This document shows, piece by piece, positions 11,568-24,551 of a stretch of 64,000 bases of DNA. The translations under genes were made by a program, and so were the position numbers. Under the pieces are notes generated by a model. The model saw nothing but the letters and a program-made list of their open reading frames with translations, was not told the DNA's origin and ran no database searches. The stretch spans positions 2,130-66,129 of the forward strand of contig JBAZSR010000002.1 in the NCBI GenBank assembly GCA_041662295.1, in the 5' to 3' direction. Origin of the DNA: Elusimicrobiota bacterium. GTDB lineage: Bacteria; Elusimicrobiota; Elusimicrobia; UBA1565; UBA9628. How positions within the stretch are numbered: the stretch's first letter is position 1; the number at the start of each line of letters is the position of its first letter.

Positions 11568-11836
11568 CCAGCGATTCGACTGATTCAAGGGAACTTTTTC
11601 AAGCCTCGCTCGTATATATAAAGTATGGGCACTTCATCCCTTGAGCCGGATTGCATCGAACAGCGCATCTATCGGATCCGCGGACATCGGGTCATGCTGG
11701 ATTGCGACCTTGCCAGAATCTACGGGATATCGACCAAGCGACTTAATCAGCAGGCGTGCAGGAATCCGGAGCGTTTTCCTGATGATTTCATGTTCCGCGT
11801 GACTAAGGAAGAGGCCTCATCTCTAAGGTTGCATTT

Positions 11837-12939
11837 TGGGGATGCGTTGAATTAATCTGTTGAATGTCTCCCATTGCAGACCAGGTTTGGTCGCAGTCGG
11901 ATAAGCGCTGTGGCCCAACGAAGAAGTGACTTCGGGTTGTTGGCGGAACGGCTGCGACGGAACAGATCGCGGATGACTCCGCCCATAGATTCCATGACGT
12001 TCGTGGTGGCCGGCAGTCCAAGGTCTGGATGGGCACGATAAGCCCGGTAGTACTCAAGGCAGGCTAGGAAATCGCGCACGACCGCCTGCATCCTTCTTGT
12101 CCCACAATCACCCAGGGCTCGCTGTTGCAGGTCGGCAAGGGCACTGTTGAACTCAGCGCCTTTAGGCAGCTCCAACGCTTTCCGAACGAGTCGGTAGATT
12201 TGTTCTCTTACCTCCCCACCTTTGAGCGCCCGATATTGGCCGCGGCGGTGAAACTGAAGCTTGTGAATTAGATGGAATTGGCAAAGCTGCAGCACCCAGC
12301 GCTGCCGCTTCGCAATCTTCTGCATTCCATTCAGGTTGTCGACGACAAGGCCGCATATGCAAGCACGGGCGTTCTTTGGTATGGCAGCGAAAGCCAGTTC
12401 CCATCGCGAGGCGCCTTCTCTGCCTGCGACAAGCAACGGATCCAGGAATAGGGCGCTTGCCCCCGCGCATGGCTTCAGCGCCGTCAGGTACAGGACCCAG
12501 GGCTTTCCTGAAAATTGAAAACGCATGCCATCCGCAAGCAGGACGAGCGGGCCGTGAGGTATTCTGCGGTTGTAGGGCAGGCTGAGGAAGCGGACCAATG
12601 TCCTGCGGAATCTGTAACGCAGGGTCGGGGCAGACAGCATCCCCCGTTGCTGTGCTAGCTGGCGAAGCGTATAACGGCGTAGGAGGGCTCTTTCCAAGAT
12701 GGCAAGGCGCGTTCGGTGCTTGGGCCGTCCTCGCTTTCTCGGCCGGATTGACCAGGTCTTCTTGCAGCTAGAGCACTGCCGCCGACGCCTTCCAAAACGG
12801 CGAACCCTGGAGCCGCAGCATGGCGATTTCGCATGTCTGGCAATCATACATGCGAATTATCCTGAACTTCGAACGGCCTTCCGTCGACAATAACGCCAAT
12901 CTCGGAGGATTCTTCAACAGAATTTCTTTACGCATCCCC
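11837..12939. mobile_element. Insertion sequence (about 1.1 kb) with 27-bp imperfect terminal inverted repeats and a 5-bp ATTTT target-site duplication
   Basis: Left end GGGGATGCGTTGAATTAATCTGTTGAA; right end (reverse complement) GGGGATGCGTAAAGAAATTCTGTTGAA. Flanks gcATTTT|IS|ATTTTgc. The insertion site is the centre of a palindrome that is intact in the paralog (taagattgcaaaatgcaatctta). Confidence 0.75.
11852..12847 (-). CDS. IS transposase with N-terminal zinc-ribbon (family unresolved)
   Basis: 331 aa. N-terminal CCGSRVRRFGRRRRQCSSCKKTW and a C-terminal TTNVMES motif, which is DDE-transposase-like. Lies wholly inside the IS. Confidence 0.65.
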   Translation of the reverse strand: MIARHAKSPCCGSRVRRFGRRRRQCSSCKKTWSIRPRKRGRPKHRTRLAILERALLRRYTLRQLAQQRGMLSAPTLRYRFRRTLVRFLSLPYNRRIPHGPLVLLADGMRFQFSGKPWVLYLTALKPCAGASALFLDPLLVAGREGASRWELAFAAIPKNARACICGLVVDNLNGMQKIAKRQRWVLQLCQFHLIHKLQFHRRGQYRALKGGEVREQIYRLVRKALELPKGAEFNSALADLQQRALGDCGTRRMQAVVRDFLACLEYYRAYRAHPDLGLPATTNVMESMGGVIRDLFRRSRSANNPKSLLRWATALIRLRPNLVCNGRHSTD

Positions 12940-13297
12940 ATTTTGCAACCTTAGAGATGAGTCGTGGCCAGCACCGAAAATACCTGCCCTACGCCTTCAC
13001 CGAACACGGCGCTGTCATGCTCTCAGCCGTTCTCAGAACCCCTATCGCAGTCTCGGCCAGCATCCAGATCGTCCGCGCCTTCAACAGACTGCGGAAGATG
13101 GCCGCGGCCCACAAGGACCTGGCCCTCGCCCTCTCGGAACTTGCCAAGAAAGTCGCCGGGCATGATGACCAGTTCAAGATCGTCTTTGACGCTCTCCAGC
13201 GGCTCGAGGAACCGCCGGCCAAGCCGCGCAAGCAGATAGGATTCGTGCCGCCTAAATGAAAAAGCCGCCCCGAAGGACGGCTTCTCGTCGAAAGCTT

Positions 13298-16286: not shown

Positions 16287-16345
16287 GAAAGCGCTGCCCC
16301 CGTTTCGCGGGGGCAGATTCTCCGACGCGGAATGATGAAAGCGGT

Positions 16346-16378
16346 GGGGAGTACAGGATAATATTAGAACCTGGCTGA
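16346..16378. repeat. Island repeat R4
   Basis: GGGGAGTACAGGATAATATTAGAACCTGGCTGA. Confidence 0.6.
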
Positions 16379-16444
16379 AGGCCGAGCTCTCAGCAATTTG
16401 ATCGATTTCAGGGAACTTTTCCGGCCCTCGCTCGTATATAGGTT

Positions 16445-16969
16445 ATGGGCACTTCCCTTGAGCCGCAGAACATCGAAAGCCGCATCCACCTCATCCGCGG
16501 GCATCGGGTCATGCTGGACCGCGACCTGGCGAAAACCTACAGTGTCTCGACCATCCGTCTCAATCAGCAGGTACGCAGGAATCTGGAACGCTTCCCTGAG
16601 GACTTCATGTTCCAACTGACGAAGGAAGCGGCCGTCGCTCTAAGATTGCAAAATGCAATCTTAAAGGCTGGTCGTGGCCGGCACCGAAAATACCTGCCCT
16701 ACGCCTTCACCGAACACGGCGCGGTCATGCTCTCAGCCGTCCTGAGGACCCCCGTCGCTGTCACGGCCAGCATCCAGATCGTTCGCGCCTTCAACAGGAT
16801 GCGAAAGATGGCCGCAGCCCACAAGGACCTAGCCCTCGCCCTCTCAGAACTTGCCAACAAAGTCGCCGGGCATGACGATCAGTTCAAGATCGTCTTTGAC
16901 GCTCTCCAGCGGCTCGAGGAACCGCCTGCCACGCCGCGCAAGCAGATAGGCTTTGTACCGCCGGGTTGA
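16445..16969 (+). CDS. ORF6N-domain DNA-binding protein (intact paralog)
   Basis: [46 protein letters not shown], 174 aa. TATATA lies 6 nt upstream of the ATG. Confidence 0.75.
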   Translation: [174 protein letters not shown]

Positions 16970-17046
16970 AGCCGCACTGATGCGGTGCCAAGCTGCCACC
17001 GCAGCTAAATGAAAAAGCCGCCCCTCAAGGCGGCTTCGGGAAAACT

Positions 17047-17118
17047 TGGGCAGTATAGGATTTGAACCTATGACCCCTGTCGTGTGAGGACAGTGCTCTA
17101 CCGCTGAGCTAACTGCCC
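17047..17118 (-). tRNA. tRNA-Val (anticodon CAC), copy a
   Basis: The reverse complement folds as a cloverleaf: GGGCAGT-TA-GCTC-AGCGGTA-GAGC-A-CTGTC-CTCACAC-GACAG-GGGTC-ATAGG-TTCAAAT-CCTAT-ACTGCCC-A. Confidence 0.9.
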
Positions 17119-17227
17119 GGCTGCTCCGTCTGAGAGCCTCCTAGGACAAGAACCAATTCTTGTCGAGTATAGTGCTCTCGTAAAGGCCGTGCTTTGACCT
17201 GTTCTTCACGAATTGTAGCAGATTGCC

Positions 17228-17953
17228 CTAGGGACTCTTCTTTTTCCCCTTGTCGCTTGGCAAAGAGCCGACTACGGTGTCCAACTCCGAGATATCCAGA
17301 TGCCCAGACTCCAGGTGCTTCCATAAATATTCTACTTCGGCGGGAGAGGGGGCTTCTCTTCCCGCCCTTTTGAATGAATCCTTGATGGCAGCAACCCCAA
17401 CTGCTTTTGAAGTCGCACCTTTGTCTTTTATGATTTTCCGCTTAATATCTTCATCAAGCCCCCGCAAGGCCCAATTCTCATTCAAGAAAGTCACTATTAT
17501 TGCGTGTTTGGCCCACCGGGTTCCCAATCGTGACATGCGTTTCCCTAAGTCGTGGTCGCCGGATTCGGCAATGTAGTCGCATAAGGCCGCAAGGGAAAGG
17601 AGCAGGGATTGTGAAGGGACGCCACTGTAGGGGTACTTCTTGAGGGCACCGACAGCCTCCTTGGAACTGGAGAAAGAAAGGGGAATCGCTTCCGGTCTAA
17701 ATGACACATAATCAAGCTGTATCTCCAATTCTTCAAGAAAGTGTTGAATTTGCGACGGTGACAATAGCCCTTCGGGAAAACCTGTTGACGCCTGACTTCG
17801 AAACGATTCTATCCGAGCATAGTGTGCGGTGGTGACTGTCGAGCTATATAAGGATTCAACTACTCCCATTTCGGCACAAGCGAGACCTGGACCAACAAGG
17901 GTAACGAAAACTATCGCAAAGAGTCTCTCGCCGAGAAACCGCTGCATAAACAC
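17228..17953 (-). CDS. Secreted hypothetical protein (island cargo)
   Basis: 241 aa. N-terminal hydrophobic signal. Low GC. Confidence 0.4.
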   Translation of the reverse strand: MFMQRFLGERLFAIVFVTLVGPGLACAEMGVVESLYSSTVTTAHYARIESFRSQASTGFPEGLLSPSQIQHFLEELEIQLDYVSFRPEAIPLSFSSSKEAVGALKKYPYSGVPSQSLLLSLAALCDYIAESGDHDLGKRMSRLGTRWAKHAIIVTFLNENWALRGLDEDIKRKIIKDKGATSKAVGVAAIKDSFKRAGREAPSPAEVEYLWKHLESGHLDISELDTVVGSLPSDKGKKKSP

Positions 17954-18047
17954 CTCTCTATCCTTGCCAATAAATCATCCCATACAACCAGGGCTCGGAC
18001 CCAATGATATCACAGAACTCGCATCTCCTGAGCTTTTCCTTGTTGCA

Positions 18048-18551
18048 TCAGGGCAGGACTCTCTCTGTCGAGTCCGTAACGCCCTCGAAAGGCGTTTCTG
18101 CTTTGTCGGCAAGTTCCTTCAAAATACGCAACGCCTCCGCATCAAGGTCCGCATCTGTCCAATCCCTGTAGACCTCGCCCGCTACCCCTTCAATGCTGAT
18201 ATCAGAACATTGTCGAGGTTTGCCATAACCCCGCTCAATGATATATGTGGCTGCCGTTAGTCGCTCCTGAAGCGACGGAGCAATCAGGTTCCCGCGCCTA
18301 TCTGGGACCTTCTCTGAGCCCTCTGCAACCCGCTCCAAGAAGGCAAAGCCGAATTTGTCTGCCCATTCCGCACACCGCCGAATGTACCCGCTCCCCTTGG
18401 GCCGACCCGGCCCTCCGGGGTTACCCTTCTCAAATGGTCTACCTGGCATAAGTGCCTCCGCGACATTCCTGCGATAAATAACGCCCCACCACACAAAAGG
18501 AAAAATCGCTCCCATGCCCCTTGGGCAAGAAAGACAGCCTGTTCTCGGCAC
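18048..18551 (-). CDS. Hypothetical phage-like protein with GNPGGPGRPKG motif (DUF5681 / terminase-small-subunit-like N-terminus)
   Basis: MPGRPFEKGNPGGPGRPKGSG. The start may be this internal Met. Confidence 0.35.
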   Translation of the reverse strand: MPRTGCLSCPRGMGAIFPFVWWGVIYRRNVAEALMPGRPFEKGNPGGPGRPKGSGYIRRCAEWADKFGFAFLERVAEGSEKVPDRRGNLIAPSLQERLTAATYIIERGYGKPRQCSDISIEGVAGEVYRDWTDADLDAEALRILKELADKAETPFEGVTDSTERVLP

Positions 18552-18641
18552 TGTTCTGTTCCGAATGCTCTTGTTCAGAACCCGGTGGGGGCATGCGTGT
18601 TATTACTCCCTTTGACCTAGCCTTAACATCACCTTGACATC

Positions 18642-19736
18642 TCATTGATATAGCCTTGATGTTGCATTCTGCCTCAGCCTGTCATAAATTGCGCCCCAAT
18701 GCATCATGCTTTCGTTGGCCTTCGCCCACCATGCGGCCGTCATCTTAGTCCTAGGCCGATAGTGAAGTCGGGCAATGCCAATCAAAACCACCTCCGTCAT
18801 ATGTCTGAGCACTGGGAGCAGAATGGGCTCACAATCGAGTTCTTCCCTAGCCCAGTCGAGCTGCCCCGGCGTAACCATTCTGACGGCGGCCTCCTGGGCC
18901 TTGGTTCCCAACTTGTTTTCAATGTCCTCTCCCTGGCCGCAACCGACTGAATGGATTATTTCTGCTTCCGGCTTGTCTGACTCGTACAGGTGGGGAATCC
19001 ACTTCAATATCCCAAGGTCCCGCAACTGACCCAACCGTCTAAAAGCATCTGTTGCTTTCGACTCTCCCCCCGCCTTCTCCTCCTCAGTCAAGGTTGCTCG
19101 ATAATGAGGTTCTAGCGAACCACTACACGACACCCATTCCCGAGGATTTCCAAACCCCCAGACAACATAAGGCCCCTGCTGCCCAACCCGAACCCGCTCG
19201 AATACCTCCCAAGCCAGACTCCGTCTGATTCCGCCGGAATCGGGGAGAAATTGCTCATGGTAGAGGTCAACAAATAGTCGGAGGGTCATTACATCCTGAC
19301 ACTGCCGGACCCGTTCCAATGGGGAATCCTCGCCGTTGGCCCCCACCACAAGGGAATTCGGGAGAAAGACCAACCCGGCCTCTGGAGTCGGTTTGCTTCG
19401 CAAACTATAGAGGGGGCGAGTCCCTTCCTTGTCCTTTGTGATTAGCCTGGCCTTTATGAGCTTGCCTATGGCATCCTTGGCTCGCATCCGGCTGATTCGC
19501 GTGTATGTCTCAATGGCATGAGTGCTTGCCCTTGTAACATCGTTCAGCCTCCCACTGAAACTCGCCATCACCATATAGGCCACGGCAGGGTTGAGACCTA
19601 GGGTGCAGACGCGTTCCCAATGCTTGCCGTCTATGGCAAAGAAATGCCCCACCCCGCAGCTAGACTCTGGGGCCCCACACGGAGCCAACGCAGGCACGGC
19701 ACCCACTATTCCCCTCGCATATTCTCCCGGGGTCAT
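18642..19736 (-). CDS. Hypothetical protein with putative winged-helix segment (replication/regulatory candidate)
   Basis: 364 aa. The segment RASTHAIETYTRISRMRAKDAIGKLIKARLITK looks like a winged helix. Its start overlaps the upstream gene's stop by 4 bp, consistent with an operon. Confidence 0.4.
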   Translation of the reverse strand: MTPGEYARGIVGAVPALAPCGAPESSCGVGHFFAIDGKHWERVCTLGLNPAVAYMVMASFSGRLNDVTRASTHAIETYTRISRMRAKDAIGKLIKARLITKDKEGTRPLYSLRSKPTPEAGLVFLPNSLVVGANGEDSPLERVRQCQDVMTLRLFVDLYHEQFLPDSGGIRRSLAWEVFERVRVGQQGPYVVWGFGNPREWVSCSGSLEPHYRATLTEEEKAGGESKATDAFRRLGQLRDLGILKWIPHLYESDKPEAEIIHSVGCGQGEDIENKLGTKAQEAAVRMVTPGQLDWAREELDCEPILLPVLRHMTEVVLIGIARLHYRPRTKMTAAWWAKANESMMHWGAIYDRLRQNATSRLYQ

Positions 19737-20071
19737 GGCTGCACCCCCTCAAATAGGCCAGGCTGAGCCGACTCAGCCTTATGCCACAACCTCAGAGGCA
19801 AGGCTATTTGCGGCTCGTATCCCGCATAGTGAATGGGCCTGCCCTCTTGTCTAATTCGCCCCAAACTCGCAGAATAGGAAATGCCCGAATCCTTATCGGT
19901 CAGCAGGACTTCGATTACGCCTTGTTTCTGTGCCGCATCTAGTTGAGGAACGCTGAGTGCCCAGGAAGGTTCTGGATATCTCAACTGGTTCTTACTTCGG
20001 ACTGATTTGACCAGCCGCGCCCCGACGATACGTCCAGGAATCTTTTTCGGGTTGAAGGGGGTAGCACTCAT
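19733..20071 (-). CDS. Hypothetical protein (112 aa)
   Basis: 4-bp overlaps at both ends, consistent with an operon. Confidence 0.35.
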   Translation of the reverse strand: MSATPFNPKKIPGRIVGARLVKSVRSKNQLRYPEPSWALSVPQLDAAQKQGVIEVLLTDKDSGISYSASLGRIRQEGRPIHYAGYEPQIALPLRLWHKAESAQPGLFEGVQP

Positions 20072-20289
20072 ACTTTCCCTCCCTTCGATTCTGCCAATAC
20101 CTGATACACCCGGCGTGGCGTGATTCCGAGCAGGCTAGAGAGTTGATTGGCCGTCTTCCCTGCGGCGTGAAGGCGAAGGAGTTTTGCTTTGTCAATTCTG
20201 TCCCGCTTCGGAACATAGATTATTCGCCCTCCAGCCCTAGCCCTCAGCCTCGCCAAACACCTTTTGCATACGCAATCCATCAATGCCAT
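20068..20289 (-). CDS. Small HTH DNA-binding regulator (Mor-like)
   Basis: 73 aa. YVPKRDRIDKAKLLRLHAAGKTANQLSSLLGITPRRVYQVL. First gene of the minus-strand operon. Confidence 0.5.
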   Translation of the reverse strand: MALMDCVCKRCLARLRARAGGRIIYVPKRDRIDKAKLLRLHAAGKTANQLSSLLGITPRRVYQVLAESKGGKV

Positions 20290-20858
20290 ATATAACCTCC
20301 CAGGAAATAAAAATGGCCCGTCAATAGTTAGAACAACTCGTCGGAGCCTAGGTATACCTAGACCCTAACGGCTTTTCTTTCCTATCGACAAGCCTGGGTG
20401 GTTATCCGATGGACCGTCCGTATTGGGTTATCGGACTGAATTGTGCGGCCCCTTTCGGGGTTGTCCCACATCCAGCCCGGCCCACGGACTTCTTCGGGCC
20501 AACAGCACTTGCTTCATGTTCCTACACCATCCGCACATTGGGCCCTTGCGGGTTATCCTAGGGCGAAGCATGAACACGATGCCCCAATAACGGAGGGGCC
20601 TCCCGTTTGTGTCATCAACTCAAAGAACAGGGGAAACCTTCAATCAATTATACCAGTTCAACTTGCCTTACCACTGAAAAACCGCCGGGAAATCCTTTGA
20701 CCAGTTCTTCACCCCATGCAACAAACTATGCCAGCCGGAACCTCTCCCTCCCCTTTAGCTAAGCCCCTATGCAGTCCAACGACGAGCCTTACCGATGTCC
20801 CTAAAAAGCACCGTCAATTGCTTGACCCCTTTGAGGAACAAGTAATAGACTCATCCTG

Positions 20859-21248
20859 ATGACCAAATTAAATGCTACGCGTGGATTTCTTTTGGCTCTA
20901 GCCCTGGCACCCCTCGGCGGGTGCGCCACAACACCCAAGAGTAGCCCAGGCAATCTTACCCACGGCGGGGTCCAACTCTTTCTCAAGAAAGGCGTAACCA
21001 CGCAAGCAGAGGTCCTTGAGAAATTTGGTGCCCCAAACATCGCTACGGTTGATGGTGCGGGGCATGAAGTCTGGACCTACCAAAAGCACGCCTCTGTTTC
21101 CCATGAGTCTTCTGGGTATGCGACGATTGTCCTGTTTGGAGGGTCTTCCAGCGGTTTTGAACAATCGTCCCGCACGATGACATTGATTATTAAATTTAAC
21201 GACACAAAGGTCGTTTCAGATTTCAGCAGCATGTACTCTAGCTTCTAG
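20859..21248 (+). CDS. Lipoprotein (unknown function)
   Basis: Lipobox LGGC. 129 aa. AT-richer than the surroundings. Confidence 0.5.
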   Translation: MTKLNATRGFLLALALAPLGGCATTPKSSPGNLTHGGVQLFLKKGVTTQAEVLEKFGAPNIATVDGAGHEVWTYQKHASVSHESSGYATIVLFGGSSSGFEQSSRTMTLIIKFNDTKVVSDFSSMYSSF

Positions 21249-21256
21249 GAGCATTT

Positions 21257-21709
21257 ATGAAAAAATTCATTGCAGTACTCCTACTTGCAATTTTGTCTGG
21301 CTGTGCATCGGCTCCAAAATTGACCTCGCTTGAGTTGCAGGCGATTCAGAAACGACAATATGATTCATCGAAACAGATTGTTTTCGCATCCGCAATGTCG
21401 GTCTTTCAGGACCTGGGCTACACCATCAAGAGCGCGGATATACAAACTGGACTGATTCAAGCTCAGAGCCCGACGGAAAGCACCGTATTTTTCGGGTCCT
21501 ACATGAGCAATGTTGAGGCAACCGCTTTTGTTGAAGAACTATCACCCGCCAAATCAAGCATCCGCTTAAACTTTGTTCAGGTAAATGAATCCTCCTCTGG
21601 ATATGGAATGAAGTCCAAGTCGGACACCCCCATCGTGGACTCCAAGGTTTACCAAAACGCTTTCACAAAGATTCAAGAAGCGATTTTCATTCGCACGAAT
21701 ACTCAGTAA
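21257..21709 (+). CDS. Lipoprotein (unknown function)
   Basis: Lipobox LSGC. 150 aa. AT-rich codon usage. Confidence 0.55.
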   Translation: MKKFIAVLLLAILSGCASAPKLTSLELQAIQKRQYDSSKQIVFASAMSVFQDLGYTIKSADIQTGLIQAQSPTESTVFFGSYMSNVEATAFVEELSPAKSSIRLNFVQVNESSSGYGMKSKSDTPIVDSKVYQNAFTKIQEAIFIRTNTQ

Positions 21710-21741
21710 CCCCTCCCCCCTGACTAGCCTTCCCTAAAAAG

Positions 21742-22719
21742 CTAATCCAACCTGACTCGCTTCCTCTCGCCAGGGAGAGGCCCCATCTTATCCAATGGGC
21801 TAGCTCGACGGTGTTCTGTCAAAGCATCATCGTCGGTCATGTTGACATAGTTCCTCACCATGTCGAGGGAGGAATGCCCCAAGAGCTTTTGCAAGGCCAT
21901 GATGTCCCCCCCATTCCTGAGGAATTGGAGAGCAAAGAAGTGCCTCAACGCATGGGGAGAGAGCCTATCAGCGGCAATCCCTACCGTCCTGGTGTAGCGT
22001 TTCATCCTGTGGGCGAAGTGTGTCCGTTTCAGCGTCCTTCCAAAACGGTCAATCCATAGGCTATCGCATCCCTCGACGGTGCCCCTCTTTCGCATCCAGA
22101 GCATGAGGGCATGACGGGCAGTGCTCCCGAAGGCAATCCGGCGCTCCTTCCCTCCTTTCCCCATAACCGCGATGGTGTTGCTTCCCCAATCAATCTCGGA
22201 GAGCTTCACGGAAAGGGCCTCGCTGATTCTCAGCCCTGTATCGGCCAGAAACAGTATTAGGGAATGGTCCCGAAGGCCGAGAGCTTTGCCTGTGTCAATC
22301 ACTTCGAGGATACGCCTCAATTCCTCGACGGTGATAGGCTTTAGGAATCTCCGCTCCCGCCTGGGATGTTCTACCTTTTCCATCGGGTCGAGGATTATCA
22401 GCCCGTCCCGGTGTAGGAAGTGCCAGAAGGTTCTGAGTATCTTGAAGATACAGGCTACCGTCGTGGGTTTGTTGCCTCTCTCCTTACAGTGGTCGAGGAA
22501 GGCCCTCAGGTGTGGGGATTGAATCTCACCGGGCGAAAGGTTGCCATTCTCTGCTACCCAAGCCCGGAACAATCTCAACCGGACAGCATAGAGGTCGATA
22601 GTCGGCTGAGAAAGATTGAGGCTCTTGCACCGCAAGAGAAACATCCTCGCGGCAGTGTCCCAATTGAGGGTTTGCGGGGTAATGCTTGCGATATTCAACC
22701 TGTCCATGTGCTCCTCCAA
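21742..22719 (-). CDS. Tyrosine-type site-specific integrase/recombinase
   Basis: N-terminal core-binding (SAM-like) domain. The catalytic R...HALRH...LLGHSSLDMVRNY motifs with the Tyr nucleophile. 325 aa. Confidence 0.85.
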   Translation of the reverse strand: MEEHMDRLNIASITPQTLNWDTAARMFLLRCKSLNLSQPTIDLYAVRLRLFRAWVAENGNLSPGEIQSPHLRAFLDHCKERGNKPTTVACIFKILRTFWHFLHRDGLIILDPMEKVEHPRRERRFLKPITVEELRRILEVIDTGKALGLRDHSLILFLADTGLRISEALSVKLSEIDWGSNTIAVMGKGGKERRIAFGSTARHALMLWMRKRGTVEGCDSLWIDRFGRTLKRTHFAHRMKRYTRTVGIAADRLSPHALRHFFALQFLRNGGDIMALQKLLGHSSLDMVRNYVNMTDDDALTEHRRASPLDKMGPLPGERKRVRLD

Positions 22720-22823
22720 AACAGGTCGAGTATAGTGCTGTCATGGGCCCCAAAAGGCCCAGAAAAAGCACCTTCCAGACTTTACGCTAGGTGGGTTCTC
22801 CGACGGAGAGGACAGCGAGGAAT

Positions 22824-22895
22824 GGGCAGTATAGGATTTGAACCTATGACCCCTGTCGTGTGAGGACAGTGCTCTACCGCTGAGCTAACTGCCCG
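22824..22895 (-). tRNA. tRNA-Val (anticodon CAC), copy b
   Basis: Identical to copy a over the whole gene plus the GGC 5' flank. Confidence 0.9.
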
Positions 22896-22949
22896 GCAGA
22901 GGATATTCTACAACACTTTTCCGCTGGCCCCCAACCCGCACTAGGAAAG

Positions 22950-23405
22950 TCATGCCGGACCGGAGGAACAGCGCCGGTAGAGGCCGTTCTTGCGGACCAT
23001 CAGCTTGTTGATGATGAATTCGCGGCGCAGGGTGCAGACGTCCTCGTGGAACCGGCGGAGGGTGTCGTTGACCTCGGCTTCGGTGTAGACCCTCCCTTGA
23101 AGGAAATTCGAGGCCAGCCGCTCGAGGACGAGGAGGCGCTTGCCCCGCTTGGCCGGGATGCTGACGAGCCTCCCGTCCGCGCTGAAAAAACTCTGGAGTA
23201 CGCGGTCCTGATCGCTGAGCCGGTTCGAATGCCGCTCAAGCCACTCGCGCACCGAGGCCTCCTCGACCCGCCAGTCCTTGCCGAGCTTGTACGCCTTGAT
23301 CTCCCCGCTTTGGAGCTTGCGCAGCACGACCTGAGTGTTCATCCGGAGGATCTCGGCCACTTCCGCGGCTGTCAGCAGCTTGAGGTCTCTGATCTCGCTC
23401 TTCAT
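22950..23405 (-). CDS. DNA-binding protein: excisionase/MerR-type HTH plus DUF2087-like C-terminal domain
   Basis: The N-terminus LLTAAEVAEILRMNTQVVLRKLQSGEIKAYKLGKDWRV matches excisionase/MerR-type HTHs. 151 aa. Confidence 0.5.
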   Translation of the reverse strand: MKSEIRDLKLLTAAEVAEILRMNTQVVLRKLQSGEIKAYKLGKDWRVEEASVREWLERHSNRLSDQDRVLQSFFSADGRLVSIPAKRGKRLLVLERLASNFLQGRVYTEAEVNDTLRRFHEDVCTLRREFIINKLMVRKNGLYRRCSSGPA

Positions 23406-23520
23406 ATTGTGTACTTTTATGTACTTTAAGATACTTTACAATATACCGGCGCCCCAATCAAGGGCGCCCGGCGCACCCAAGAGCCTCTTTTCGCGTCCAA
23501 AGGGCAGTAGGGAAACGACC

Positions 23521-24432
23521 ATGCCCCCCCGCCTTGGACTGTGCTGTCTCTTCATGGCCGAGCCCATCCGCTACCGCACGACCAGGGCCACGATCCTGAA
23601 ACGATTCCTTAAGAAGGAACGCTTGGCCAAGGCCTCGGCGCTGTGCCTCCATAATATGGAAAGCCTCAAGGCCTCCATCGAGGCGGTGGTCAGGCTGGGG
23701 ATCGGCGCCTTCCGCGTCCAGAGCGGACTTTTTCCAAGGGCGACCCACCCCGAGGTAGGCTACGCCCTCTCCGACCTGTTGGACAAGGAACGCATCCTAG
23801 CGCTCGCCAGAGAGGTCCGGAGCCTCGCCAAGAAACACGGAGTTCGGCTGAGCCTGCACCCGGACCAGTTCGTGAGCCTCTCCTCAGCCAAGCCCGCGGT
23901 GACGGACTCCTCCGTCCGGGAACTCGAGTTCCAGGGCCTCCTGGCCGAACTCATCGGAGCCGAGACCATCACCCTGCACGGAGGCGGGGCCGAAGGAGGC
24001 AAGGAAGCGGCGCTCGCCCGACTCCGGAAAGGCTTCGGGAGGCTCTCCCGCCGGGTGAGGAGGCGCCTTGCCCTCGAGAATGACGACCGGGTCTACACGC
24101 CGAGCGACCTTCTCCCCCTCTGCCGCAAGCTCGGCATCCCCATGGTCTACGACTGCCACCACCACCGCTGCCTGCCGGACGGCCTGAGCCTTCCGGAAGC
24201 TTCCCGGGCCGCTGCCGCGACCTGGAGGCGGCTCTCCCGAGAGCCCTATTTCCACGTCTCCTCGCCGAAATACGGCTGGAACGGCCGGGACCCCAGGCCG
24301 CACAGCGACTACATCGACCCCTTGGACTTCCCCAAGGCCTGGCTGGCCGGCCGGCTGACCGTGGACGTGGAGGCCAAGGCCAAGGAACTGGCCGTGCTGG
24401 CCCTCCGGGAGAGGCTGCCGAGCTCCCGTTGA
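23521..24432 (+). CDS. uvsE: UV DNA damage endonuclease UvsE/UVDE
   Basis: ITLHGGG, LALENDDRVYT and VYDCHHH motifs. The start was moved to MPPRLGL. Confidence 0.75.
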   Translation: MPPRLGLCCLFMAEPIRYRTTRATILKRFLKKERLAKASALCLHNMESLKASIEAVVRLGIGAFRVQSGLFPRATHPEVGYALSDLLDKERILALAREVRSLAKKHGVRLSLHPDQFVSLSSAKPAVTDSSVRELEFQGLLAELIGAETITLHGGGAEGGKEAALARLRKGFGRLSRRVRRRLALENDDRVYTPSDLLPLCRKLGIPMVYDCHHHRCLPDGLSLPEASRAAAATWRRLSREPYFHVSSPKYGWNGRDPRPHSDYIDPLDFPKAWLAGRLTVDVEAKAKELAVLALRERLPSSR

Positions 24433-24551
24433 CTCGGAAGGGGTCATTTTTCTATACTGACCATGCTCTCCGTTGTACCGTAGGGAATCCCCAAAAGGCT
24501 CCTACTGAAGAAGCGGTATGCACGGAAGGCGGGACGCCGTCGCGTCAAGCT

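Follow-up and report, generated by a model that had tools for sequence, protein, structure and literature searches.

A 5.7-kb integrative element at tRNA-Val in an Elusimicrobiota bacterium and its candidacy as a phage satellite

Insertion of a foreign element at tRNA-Val

The DNA analyzed here, called the window, is a stretch of 64,000 nt from a metagenome-assembled genome (MAG) of an Elusimicrobiota bacterium (GCA_041662295.1, contig JBAZSR010000002.1). It contains a small element bounded by two identical minus-strand tRNA-Val(CAC) genes, both detected by ARAGORN and by Rfam (71.4 bits each), which found no other noncoding RNA in the element. Each gene lies within one copy of an exact 75-nt direct repeat, whose borders are the discriminator base of the tRNA on one side and, on the other, the third nucleotide upstream of its 5′ end; CCA is not encoded. 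The exactness of the repeat excludes a chance origin. A preliminary description, made from the letters alone, had already proposed a 75-bp direct repeat with two complete tRNA-Val genes, and our results confirm it; its position for copy a was correct, whereas copy b, given as 22824-22898, was off by one base. The copies are 5,701 bp apart, and the element totals 5,776 bp when this unique DNA is counted together with one 75-nt attachment (att) copy. Table 1 lists the features.

Table 1. Features of the element and of its borders (positions in the window)
Feature	Position	Strand	Remarks
Host intrinsic terminator hairpin	17014..17037	-	Directly downstream of tRNA copy a, outside the element; marks the native 3′ flank
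att repeat copy a (attR-like)	17047..17121	-	Whole tRNA-Val(CAC), 17047-17118, plus 3 nt on the 5′ side
15-nt motif AGCACTATACTCGAC, contains TATACT	17162..17176	-	44 nt upstream of tRNA copy a
239-aa protein	17228..17947	-	N-terminal signal-like hydrophobic segment; no family match
132-aa protein, divergent DUF5681 family, candidate terminase small subunit (TerS)	18048..18446	-
68-aa open reading frame (ORF)	18439..18645	-	Overlaps the stop of rep (ATGA) at its start and the start of TerS at its end; on a Logan contig, also called as a gene
364-aa multi-winged-helix protein, candidate replication initiator (rep364 family)	18642..19736	-
112-aa protein	19733..20071	-	Between the HTH gene and rep, translationally coupled; no detectable relatives
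73-aa helix-turn-helix (HTH) regulator	20068..20289	-	First operon gene; HTH_23 above Pfam threshold, also HTH_28
Noncoding divergent control region, 569 nt	20290..20858		Between the operon and the lipoprotein genes
Lipoprotein, 129 aa	20859..21248	+	Lipobox LGGC; matches phage family phrog_3135 (1.7e-14, function unknown)
Lipoprotein, 150 aa	21257..21709	+	Lipobox LSGC; signal-peptide-level matches only
XerC/D-like tyrosine integrase, 321 aa	21742..22707	-	Pfam Phage_integrase 1.4e-37; SAM-like N-terminal domain
15-nt TATACT motif, second copy	22725..22739	-	18-32 nt upstream of the int ATG
att repeat copy b (attL-like)	22823..22897	-	Whole tRNA-Val(CAC), 22823-22894, plus 3 nt; native host promoter flank kept
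Conserved host tRNA-Val upstream flank	22898..22922	-	Reverse complement ...AAAGTGTTGTAGAATA, -10-like; outside the element; marks the native 5′ flank

The DNA between the copies is foreign in composition, as had been noticed earlier. Its GC content is 0.526 versus 0.682 for the window outside the low-GC block, and GC at third codon positions (GC3) is 0.51 to 0.68 in the inner genes versus 0.85 to 0.95 in tuf, uvdE, and other host genes. We then compared the site with related genomes. The exact 72-nt tRNA occurs in just ten contigs of a species-level genome collection, all of them Elusimicrobia/Elusimicrobiota MAGs with one copy each. The upstream flank of copy b, with a -10-like TAGAAT on the tRNA strand, is kept at the single tRNA of L003, L004, L005, L007, L009, and L010, whereas copy a has unrelated element DNA in its place. 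On the other side, copy a is followed by the host terminator and an ORF6N gene; an ORF6N-like gene stands on the same side of the single tRNA in L002 and L003, and L002 and L010 have a hairpin where copy a has its terminator. In L010, the single tRNA-Val copy is flanked by the terminator hairpin and, at its opposite end, by the conserved promoter flank. The unoccupied arrangement, in which tRNA-Val adjoins tRNA-Gly/Thr, is seen in L002, L003, and L011, with the order ORF6N, tRNA-Val, tRNA-Gly/Thr, uninterrupted by other DNA, in the first two. Since the tRNA is single copy in relatives and has there the same promoter, terminator, and ORF6N flanks, the window contains a true insertion. The small integrative element suggested by the preliminary description is supported by the single tRNA-Val in ten related MAG contigs, and the arrangement that the same description had set against it, two full tRNA-Val copies enclosing host-like DNA, was found in none of them. 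These observations establish an insertion of foreign composition at tRNA-Val, with an empty site in relatives and an intact integrase gene.

We also considered that there might be no insertion at all, the arrangement having arisen either from a tandem duplication of tRNA-Val, with unrelated intervening DNA, or from an assembler misjoin at the shared tRNA. The contig comes from a MAG, a 75-nt repeat is able to mislead assemblers, and an independent Logan unitig (L001), which matches window positions 20887-22852 at 100% identity, ends inside the tRNA, 30 nt into the repeat. Such an end is expected at a repeat branch, however, and the same unitig confirms the element-to-tRNA junction at 100% identity. 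Moreover, 75 nt is less than a typical read length, both outer host flanks match single-copy loci, the integrase gene adjoins the repeat, and the identity stops exactly at the tRNA borders. We consider an origin of either kind very unlikely.

Because the identity comprises the whole tRNA gene and three conserved upstream bases, the attP site of the element must hold a complete tRNA-Val identical to the gene of the lineage; the crossover would lie somewhere within the 75 nt. We predict the attP junction as GGACAGCGAGGAA, the 75-nt repeat, and TGCTCCGTCTGAGAG, and the attB junction as CGGGAAAACT, the 75-nt repeat, and AGAGGATATTCTAC. Duplication of a whole tRNA had been singled out as unusual. 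This holds among relatives that share the 364-aa protein of the element, which repeat only 42 to 65 nt of a tRNA. Such a duplication, although uncommon, has precedents in a whole-tRNA attP, as the att identities of SLP1 and HP1 cover entire tRNA genes. The 15-nt motif found upstream of both copy a and int is a candidate element promoter or operator, and its presence at both places suggests that the element may drive its own tRNA copy.

Genes of the element and their families

The integrase gene near the 3′ end of copy b had been recognized in the preliminary description, with a start at 22719; within the ORF (21742-22719), ATG 22707 is the more likely start. Between the 3′ end of copy b and the start of the gene there are 103 to 115 nt (115 nt for ATG 22707), and the gene reads in the direction of the tRNA. 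Inspection shows the complete set of catalytic residues (R, K, HxxR, H, and Y), and the NCBIfam score of 190 bits is far below the XerC/XerD equivalog cutoffs of 330 to 335. To judge from its sequence, the protein is Xer-like in architecture and, by context, an element integrase. No relatives of it were found in a scan of IMG/VR.

The other minus-strand genes encode, in this order, the 73-aa HTH protein, the 112-aa protein, the 364-aa protein, the 68-aa ORF, and the 132-aa protein. Their start and stop codons overlap (ATGA or a few bases), and by this arrangement the operon is translationally coupled. The preliminary description had seen the overlaps correctly but took the genes for anonymous cargo. 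That view did not hold up, since the 364-aa protein has a large family whose members are associated with integrases, ParA, and plasmids, and the family of the 132-aa protein is found in phages at the position of TerS.

The 364-aa protein has 109 homologues, all unannotated, and we recovered 85 loci of this family, here named rep364. Its AlphaFold model is confident (predicted local distance difference test score, 90.8), and Foldseek searches of the PDB with this model returned nothing beyond winged helices. Several rep364 loci are bounded elements in tRNA genes, 4.8 to 10.6 kb long with att repeats of 42 to 65 nt: L085 (tRNA-Cys; repeat, 49 nt; 5.9 kb), L060 (tRNA-Glu; 44 nt; 8.0 kb), L049 (tRNA-Glu; 65 nt; 10.6 kb), L091/92 (tRNA-Met; 47 nt; 10.1 kb), and L062 (5′ half of tRNA-Met; 42 nt; 4.8 kb). 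The usual module consists of int, an HTH_17 Xis/AlpA-like gene, rep, and an ORF of 65 to 75 aa, and in seven loci ParA is present and the integrase absent. The small size of the 44 longer rep364 contigs reflects assembly breaks, several of them at tRNAs. In annotated records, tblastn placed rep364 on nine plasmids and gave no match in 50,697 phage genomes; homologues lie on Microvirga and Azospirillum plasmids.

Another homologue (28% identity; profile E value, 2.9e-58) is encoded by the Citrobacter circle pRHBSTW-00021_2 (L106; NZ_CP056897.1, 1-8580; 8,580 bp). Upstream of rep, this circle has a small tyrosine integrase gene and a 98-aa gene; an HK97-type major capsid gene lies beside rep and is followed by a gene with a weak match to the DUF5681 profile (E value, 2.9e-4), and a "tail assembly" gene is also present. 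Enterobacter kobei p4_SCLZS19 (L108; NZ_CP110875.1, 1-34300), annotated as a 34.3-kb plasmid, consists of four tandem units of the Citrobacter circle at 99.5% identity. The unit looks like a capsid-gene-bearing satellite that was deposited, unrecognized, as a plasmid. In an E. coli chromosome, the homologous module of int and the 98-aa gene is followed by a DUF927 protein in the position of rep, with an AlpA gene nearby; we take DUF927 proteins to be primase-helicases of satellites. From fold, neighbors, and position, we infer that the 364-aa protein initiates the replication of small replicons, be they integrative, plasmid, or satellite-like.

An exhaustive phmmer search yielded 80 homologues of the 132-aa protein. 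Pfam DUF5681 (PF18932) was matched by 31 of the 65 homologues tested (best E value, 2.6e-8) and PHROG "terminase small subunit" families by a few of them (best, 1.7e-9), and a profile search retrieved more than 1,100 proteins, most with PF18932. Transitive homology thus supports the earlier DUF5681-like call. In five independent phage contexts (L097, L099, L100, L102/103, and the P0227 contig), a homologue overlaps the start of a gene of 452 to 517 aa. Four of the five downstream genes are confirmed as encoding the terminase large subunit (TerL) (phrog_2; E values, 1e-24 to 1e-46), with mutual identities of 27 to 40%. A portal match lies downstream in L099, L100, and the P0227 contig, to Portal_Mu in L099 and P0227; L097 has a weak portal match only, and the 716-aa gene of L102 has no match. 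Since a gene that overlaps the TerL start in phages has the canonical small-terminase position, we read the 132-aa protein as a candidate TerS; by the conserved position, the DUF5681 family as a whole is probably the terminase small subunit.

The 73-aa protein had been described as Mor-like. HTH_23 passes its Pfam threshold (Table 1), and the resemblance to Mor is weak (Pfam E value, 0.015), as are matches to PHROG late transcriptional activators; Pfam gave no match to HTH_17/AlpA. We looked for kinship with the HTH protein that adjoins TerS in phage contig L097, and no relation was detectable. An IMG/VR scan found no relatives of the 112-aa protein. The control region, which has no Rfam match and no clear iterons, is a candidate site of promoters or an origin. 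The two lipoproteins named earlier are borne out by the lipoboxes in their translations. The gene of the 239-aa protein lies after the operon, separated from it by a gap, and its product is probably secreted cargo, given its N-terminal segment. PADLOC detected no defense system in the element, NCBIfam matched nothing except the Xer-like integrase, and sequence searches of the PDB with Rep, TerS, the 112-aa protein, and the secreted protein gave nothing significant. In the NCBI records, MFA6315866 corresponds to the 239-aa protein, ...68 and ...69 to the two lipoproteins, and ...70 to the integrase, which leaves one accession for the stretch 18048-20289 (TerS-like protein, 68-aa ORF, rep364, 112-aa protein, and HTH protein). 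To go by this numbering, several of these genes seem to be unannotated in the deposited MAG.

Some rep364 loci have further genes of note. Large cargo ORFs are present in L049 (12058-16986) and L091 (3935-6909), and their N termini resemble, by eye, type I restriction-modification subunits. A protein of 240 to 340 aa with the C-terminal Cys-rich motif C..DC....F......YCS..C.H (clear in L055, L074, and L078) is common beside rep364 elements; in L055, L062, L070, L074, L078, and L085, its gene is divergent from the Xis-like gene upstream of rep. The element of the window does not have it. In L105, a 368-aa gene next to the DUF5681 gene was examined as a possible Rep and turned out to be an integrase.

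Interpretation as a candidate phage satellite

The Rep candidate belongs to the rep364 family and the TerS candidate, by transitive homology, to the DUF5681 family, no capsid-related match was obtained in the element (Pfam, PHROG), and the 64-kb window contains no TerL or portal homologue (tblastn, E ≤ 0.01). An integrase, a Rep, and a TerS in an element that has no TerL, portal, or capsid genes would fit the logic of satellites such as the phage-inducible chromosomal islands (PICIs) and the Staphylococcus aureus pathogenicity islands (SaPIs). L105 provides a second case of a DUF5681 gene that is linked to int and has no TerL. We give an even chance to the reading that the element is a PICI-like phage satellite with its own Int, Rep, and TerS.

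Like PICIs and SaPIs, the element has an integrase at one end, followed by a regulator, a replication module, and, toward the opposite end, a candidate small terminase; it carries accessory cargo, and it lacks large terminase, tail, and lysis genes. In gene order (int ... regulator ... rep ... candidate terS), the element agrees with the int ... rep ... terS arrangement of PICIs (PMC10085698). The differences are considerable. The median size of PICIs is 9.5 kb versus 5.7 kb for the element; their replication protein is a primase-helicase, whereas the element has a candidate winged-helix initiator of an unannotated family, and no primase or helicase domain was found in any of its proteins (Pfam, PHROG, NCBIfam); their regulator is AlpA, MerR, or Stl, whereas that of the element is HTH_23/Mor-like; and, unlike the PICI core, the element has no capsid-morphogenesis gene, and its candidate TerS is of the DUF5681 type. 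When examined against the SatelliteFinder core (PMC10085698), the element has the integrase and lacks the AlpA/MerR/Stl regulator, the primase-replicase, and the capsid-morphogenesis gene; the 132-aa protein is its candidate for the small terminase of this core. Proteobacteria and Firmicutes account for more than 99.9% of the PICIs detected (PMC10085698), whereas the host of the element belongs to the Elusimicrobiota.

The PICMIs (phage-inducible chromosomal minimalist islands) of Vibrionaceae are likewise very small satellites with few genes, none of them for capsid remodeling. Their core comprises int, AlpA, a primase (DUF3987/DUF5906), and Fis, with no TerS (PMC10803314), and of these four mandatory genes the element has int only. 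Small PICMI satellites are packaged as concatemers (PMC10803314), which is the solution to be expected for a 5.7-kb element as well. The tycheposons of Prochlorococcus also combine a tyrosine recombinase that targets tRNA genes with a replication module; one subset is PICI-like with a terS or capsid gene, another carries cargo, and tRNA loci are repeated integration hotspots (10.1101/2020.12.28.424599). They differ from the element in their primase/helicase replication proteins, in the phylum of their hosts, and in att repeats that are partial tRNAs (10.1101/2020.12.28.424599) rather than a whole tRNA. The Citrobacter circle and its 4-fold concatemer share the Rep family and the small tyrosine integrase and small gene upstream of rep, but they have HK97-type major capsid and "tail assembly" genes, are found free and not integrated, and encode a Rep of only 28% identity. 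Among actinomycete integrative plasmids, pSAM2 and SLP1 are Int-plus-Rep elements that integrate in tRNA genes; they carry transfer genes, and HP1 is a phage with a full virion gene set, whereas the element has neither. Four general traits of a tRNA-targeting element are present, namely, tRNA-derived att repeats, an adjoining recombinase, an unoccupied site, and divergent composition.

As a satellite, the element would have entered the host tRNA-Val(CAC) by site-specific recombination, with its own XerC/D-like tyrosine integrase as the catalyst. With a complete tRNA-Val in attP, integration would leave two intact tRNA genes, of which copy b would keep the host promoter and copy a would stand behind element DNA, with the TATACT motif common to the region upstream of int. 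The integrated form would be the resting state. Upon infection or induction of a helper phage, the element would excise via Int and replicate by means of Rep as a circle or concatemer, and its TerS homologue would redirect the TerL of the helper to element DNA, which would be packaged in multimeric form into helper capsids. A suitable helper phage would have a DUF5681-type TerS and a phrog_2 TerL, possibly with the Mu-type portal seen in two contexts. The two lipoproteins and the secreted protein would serve as accessory cargo, possibly for surface modification or exclusion. The anatomy is informative; the mechanism inferred from it is conventional.

Several results weigh against a satellite. 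The element falls outside the formal definitions of both PICIs and PICMIs, as it has no AlpA, primase-helicase, or capsid-morphogenesis genes. The 132-aa protein itself has no direct match in Pfam (E ≤ 0.1), PHROG, or NCBIfam and misses the DUF5681/TerS thresholds, and its candidacy as TerS derives from gene position. Among the 44 longer rep364 loci, a DUF5681 gene is present only in the window and in L084, where it adjoins the rep364 homologue with no TerL beside it, and plain integrative plasmids may make up the greater part of the family. As for a role of the 364-aa protein in replication, its fold matches in BFVD are modest (models of phage HTH, "replication initiator," and "protein O" proteins with low TM-scores), and no convincing tandem repeats that could be iterons, an origin, or arm sites were seen in the element, where only the 15-nt motif recurs, near both ends. 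None of the 44 longer contigs showed the terminal overlap of a circular form, no helper phage was identified, and the exact attP junction had no match in IMG/VR. Finally, a look-up at 90% identity returned seven of eight proteins (six of them encoded by the element) as singletons, known solely from this MAG and a single sequencing run.

As the main rival we regard a small integrative plasmid or a genomic islet that is independent of phages; in it, Int and Rep would support an integrate-or-replicate lifestyle, the DUF5681 protein would be a DNA-binding regulator or a relic, the lipoproteins and the secreted protein would be selected cargo, and transfer would occur by transformation, vesicles, or mobilization. 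It would account for the many rep364 loci that have int/Xis or ParA and no DUF5681 gene, for the homologues on plasmids of Microvirga and Azospirillum, and for DUF5681 genes away from TerL: besides L084, these are found in L105, where the gene precedes Xis and integrase, and, with a less clear context, in the P0204 contig. The lack of a helper phage and of an attP junction (exact match in IMG/VR; 44 contigs) is also in its favor. However, the TerS position recurs in five independent phage contexts, four of them with a confirmed TerL, the operon is intact and couples translation of the 132-aa gene to that of rep, and a rep364 homologue resides in a capsid-gene-bearing 8.6-kb circle and in its concatemer. 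Furthermore, no relaxase, type IV secretion system, or FtsK-like Tra domain was found in any ORF of the element (Pfam, NCBIfam). We put the chances of this alternative well below even, though they are substantial.

We rank a decayed prophage lower, as we do an assembly artifact. In the former case, a larger temperate phage at tRNA-Val would have lost its structural genes by internal deletion, and int, the regulator, the replication genes, and terS would be what is left between intact att sites. The TerS homologue, the Mor-like HTH protein, and the phrog_3135 lipoprotein are indeed phage-type genes, and prophage decay is common at tRNA sites. Nevertheless, the repeats are perfect and all ORFs are intact and tightly coupled, the window has no homologue of TerL or portal, bounded relatives of similar size also lack structural genes, rep364 is absent from the phage genomes searched, and a GC3 so far from that of the host indicates a recent arrival and not a long decay. 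Such an origin is improbable.

A broader proposal goes beyond the satellite reading, and we rate it somewhat short of an even chance: the element would represent a minimal family of Elusimicrobiota satellites with a winged-helix Rep, packaging piracy by a DUF5681 TerS, and a complete, self-promoted tRNA-Val attP carried between cells as a working tRNA, and its Rep would link integrative plasmids, ParA plasmids, and capsid-bearing minisatellites of Enterobacteriaceae. We know of no phage-satellite system from the phylum Elusimicrobiota. If the element is a satellite, phage satellites reach a deep-branching, mostly uncultured phylum and a size class of 5.7 kb, and detectors keyed on AlpA and primase profiles would miss whole families. 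The analysis also offers testable annotations for two large unannotated families, with rep364 read as a replication initiator and DUF5681, by conserved position, as the small subunit of terminase. Should the conservative reading alone be true, the element adds another small genomic islet to those at tRNA genes, and its interest is local.

The tRNA-Val locus and neighboring DNA

tRNA-Val is an integration hotspot in this Elusimicrobia clade, and the locus is used in the lineage by elements that repeat the 3′ part, the 5′ half, or the whole of the tRNA. Three other elements at tRNA genes repeat the 5′ half (38 to 44 nt) and not the 3′ part: L008 (3183-4668), L010 (555-2684), and L062 (19-4867). 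The partial copy of L010 includes the upstream flank, and L008 has a 317-aa integrase gene in the interval from its partial copy to the complete tRNA-Val. In the rep364 element L062, located at tRNA-Met, 1 nt separates the int stop from the 5′ end of the tRNA.

The ORF6N gene downstream of copy a (16345-17036) has a paralogue within 11625-13271 that is split by an insertion sequence into two pieces (11625-11855 and 12957-13259), with the transposase at 11852-12847. Upstream, the two paralogues have a 41-nt repeat in common (15336/16345), and on the terminator side one of 20 nt (13252/17005). The whole block from 11.2 to 17 kb is below host GC (0.55 to 0.62) and may be older island material.

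On the other side of the element, a DUF2087/HTH_17 gene (22950-23405) and a 365-aa ORF (23335-24432) lie between tRNA-Val and tRNA-Gly; the latter appears UvdE-like when its own sequence is read by eye. The spacing of tRNA-Val and tRNA-Gly is 130 to 480 nt in L002, L003, and L011, and the 1.6 kb found here (22898-24550) is thus an extra insertion, of host-like GC, in the lineage of the window.

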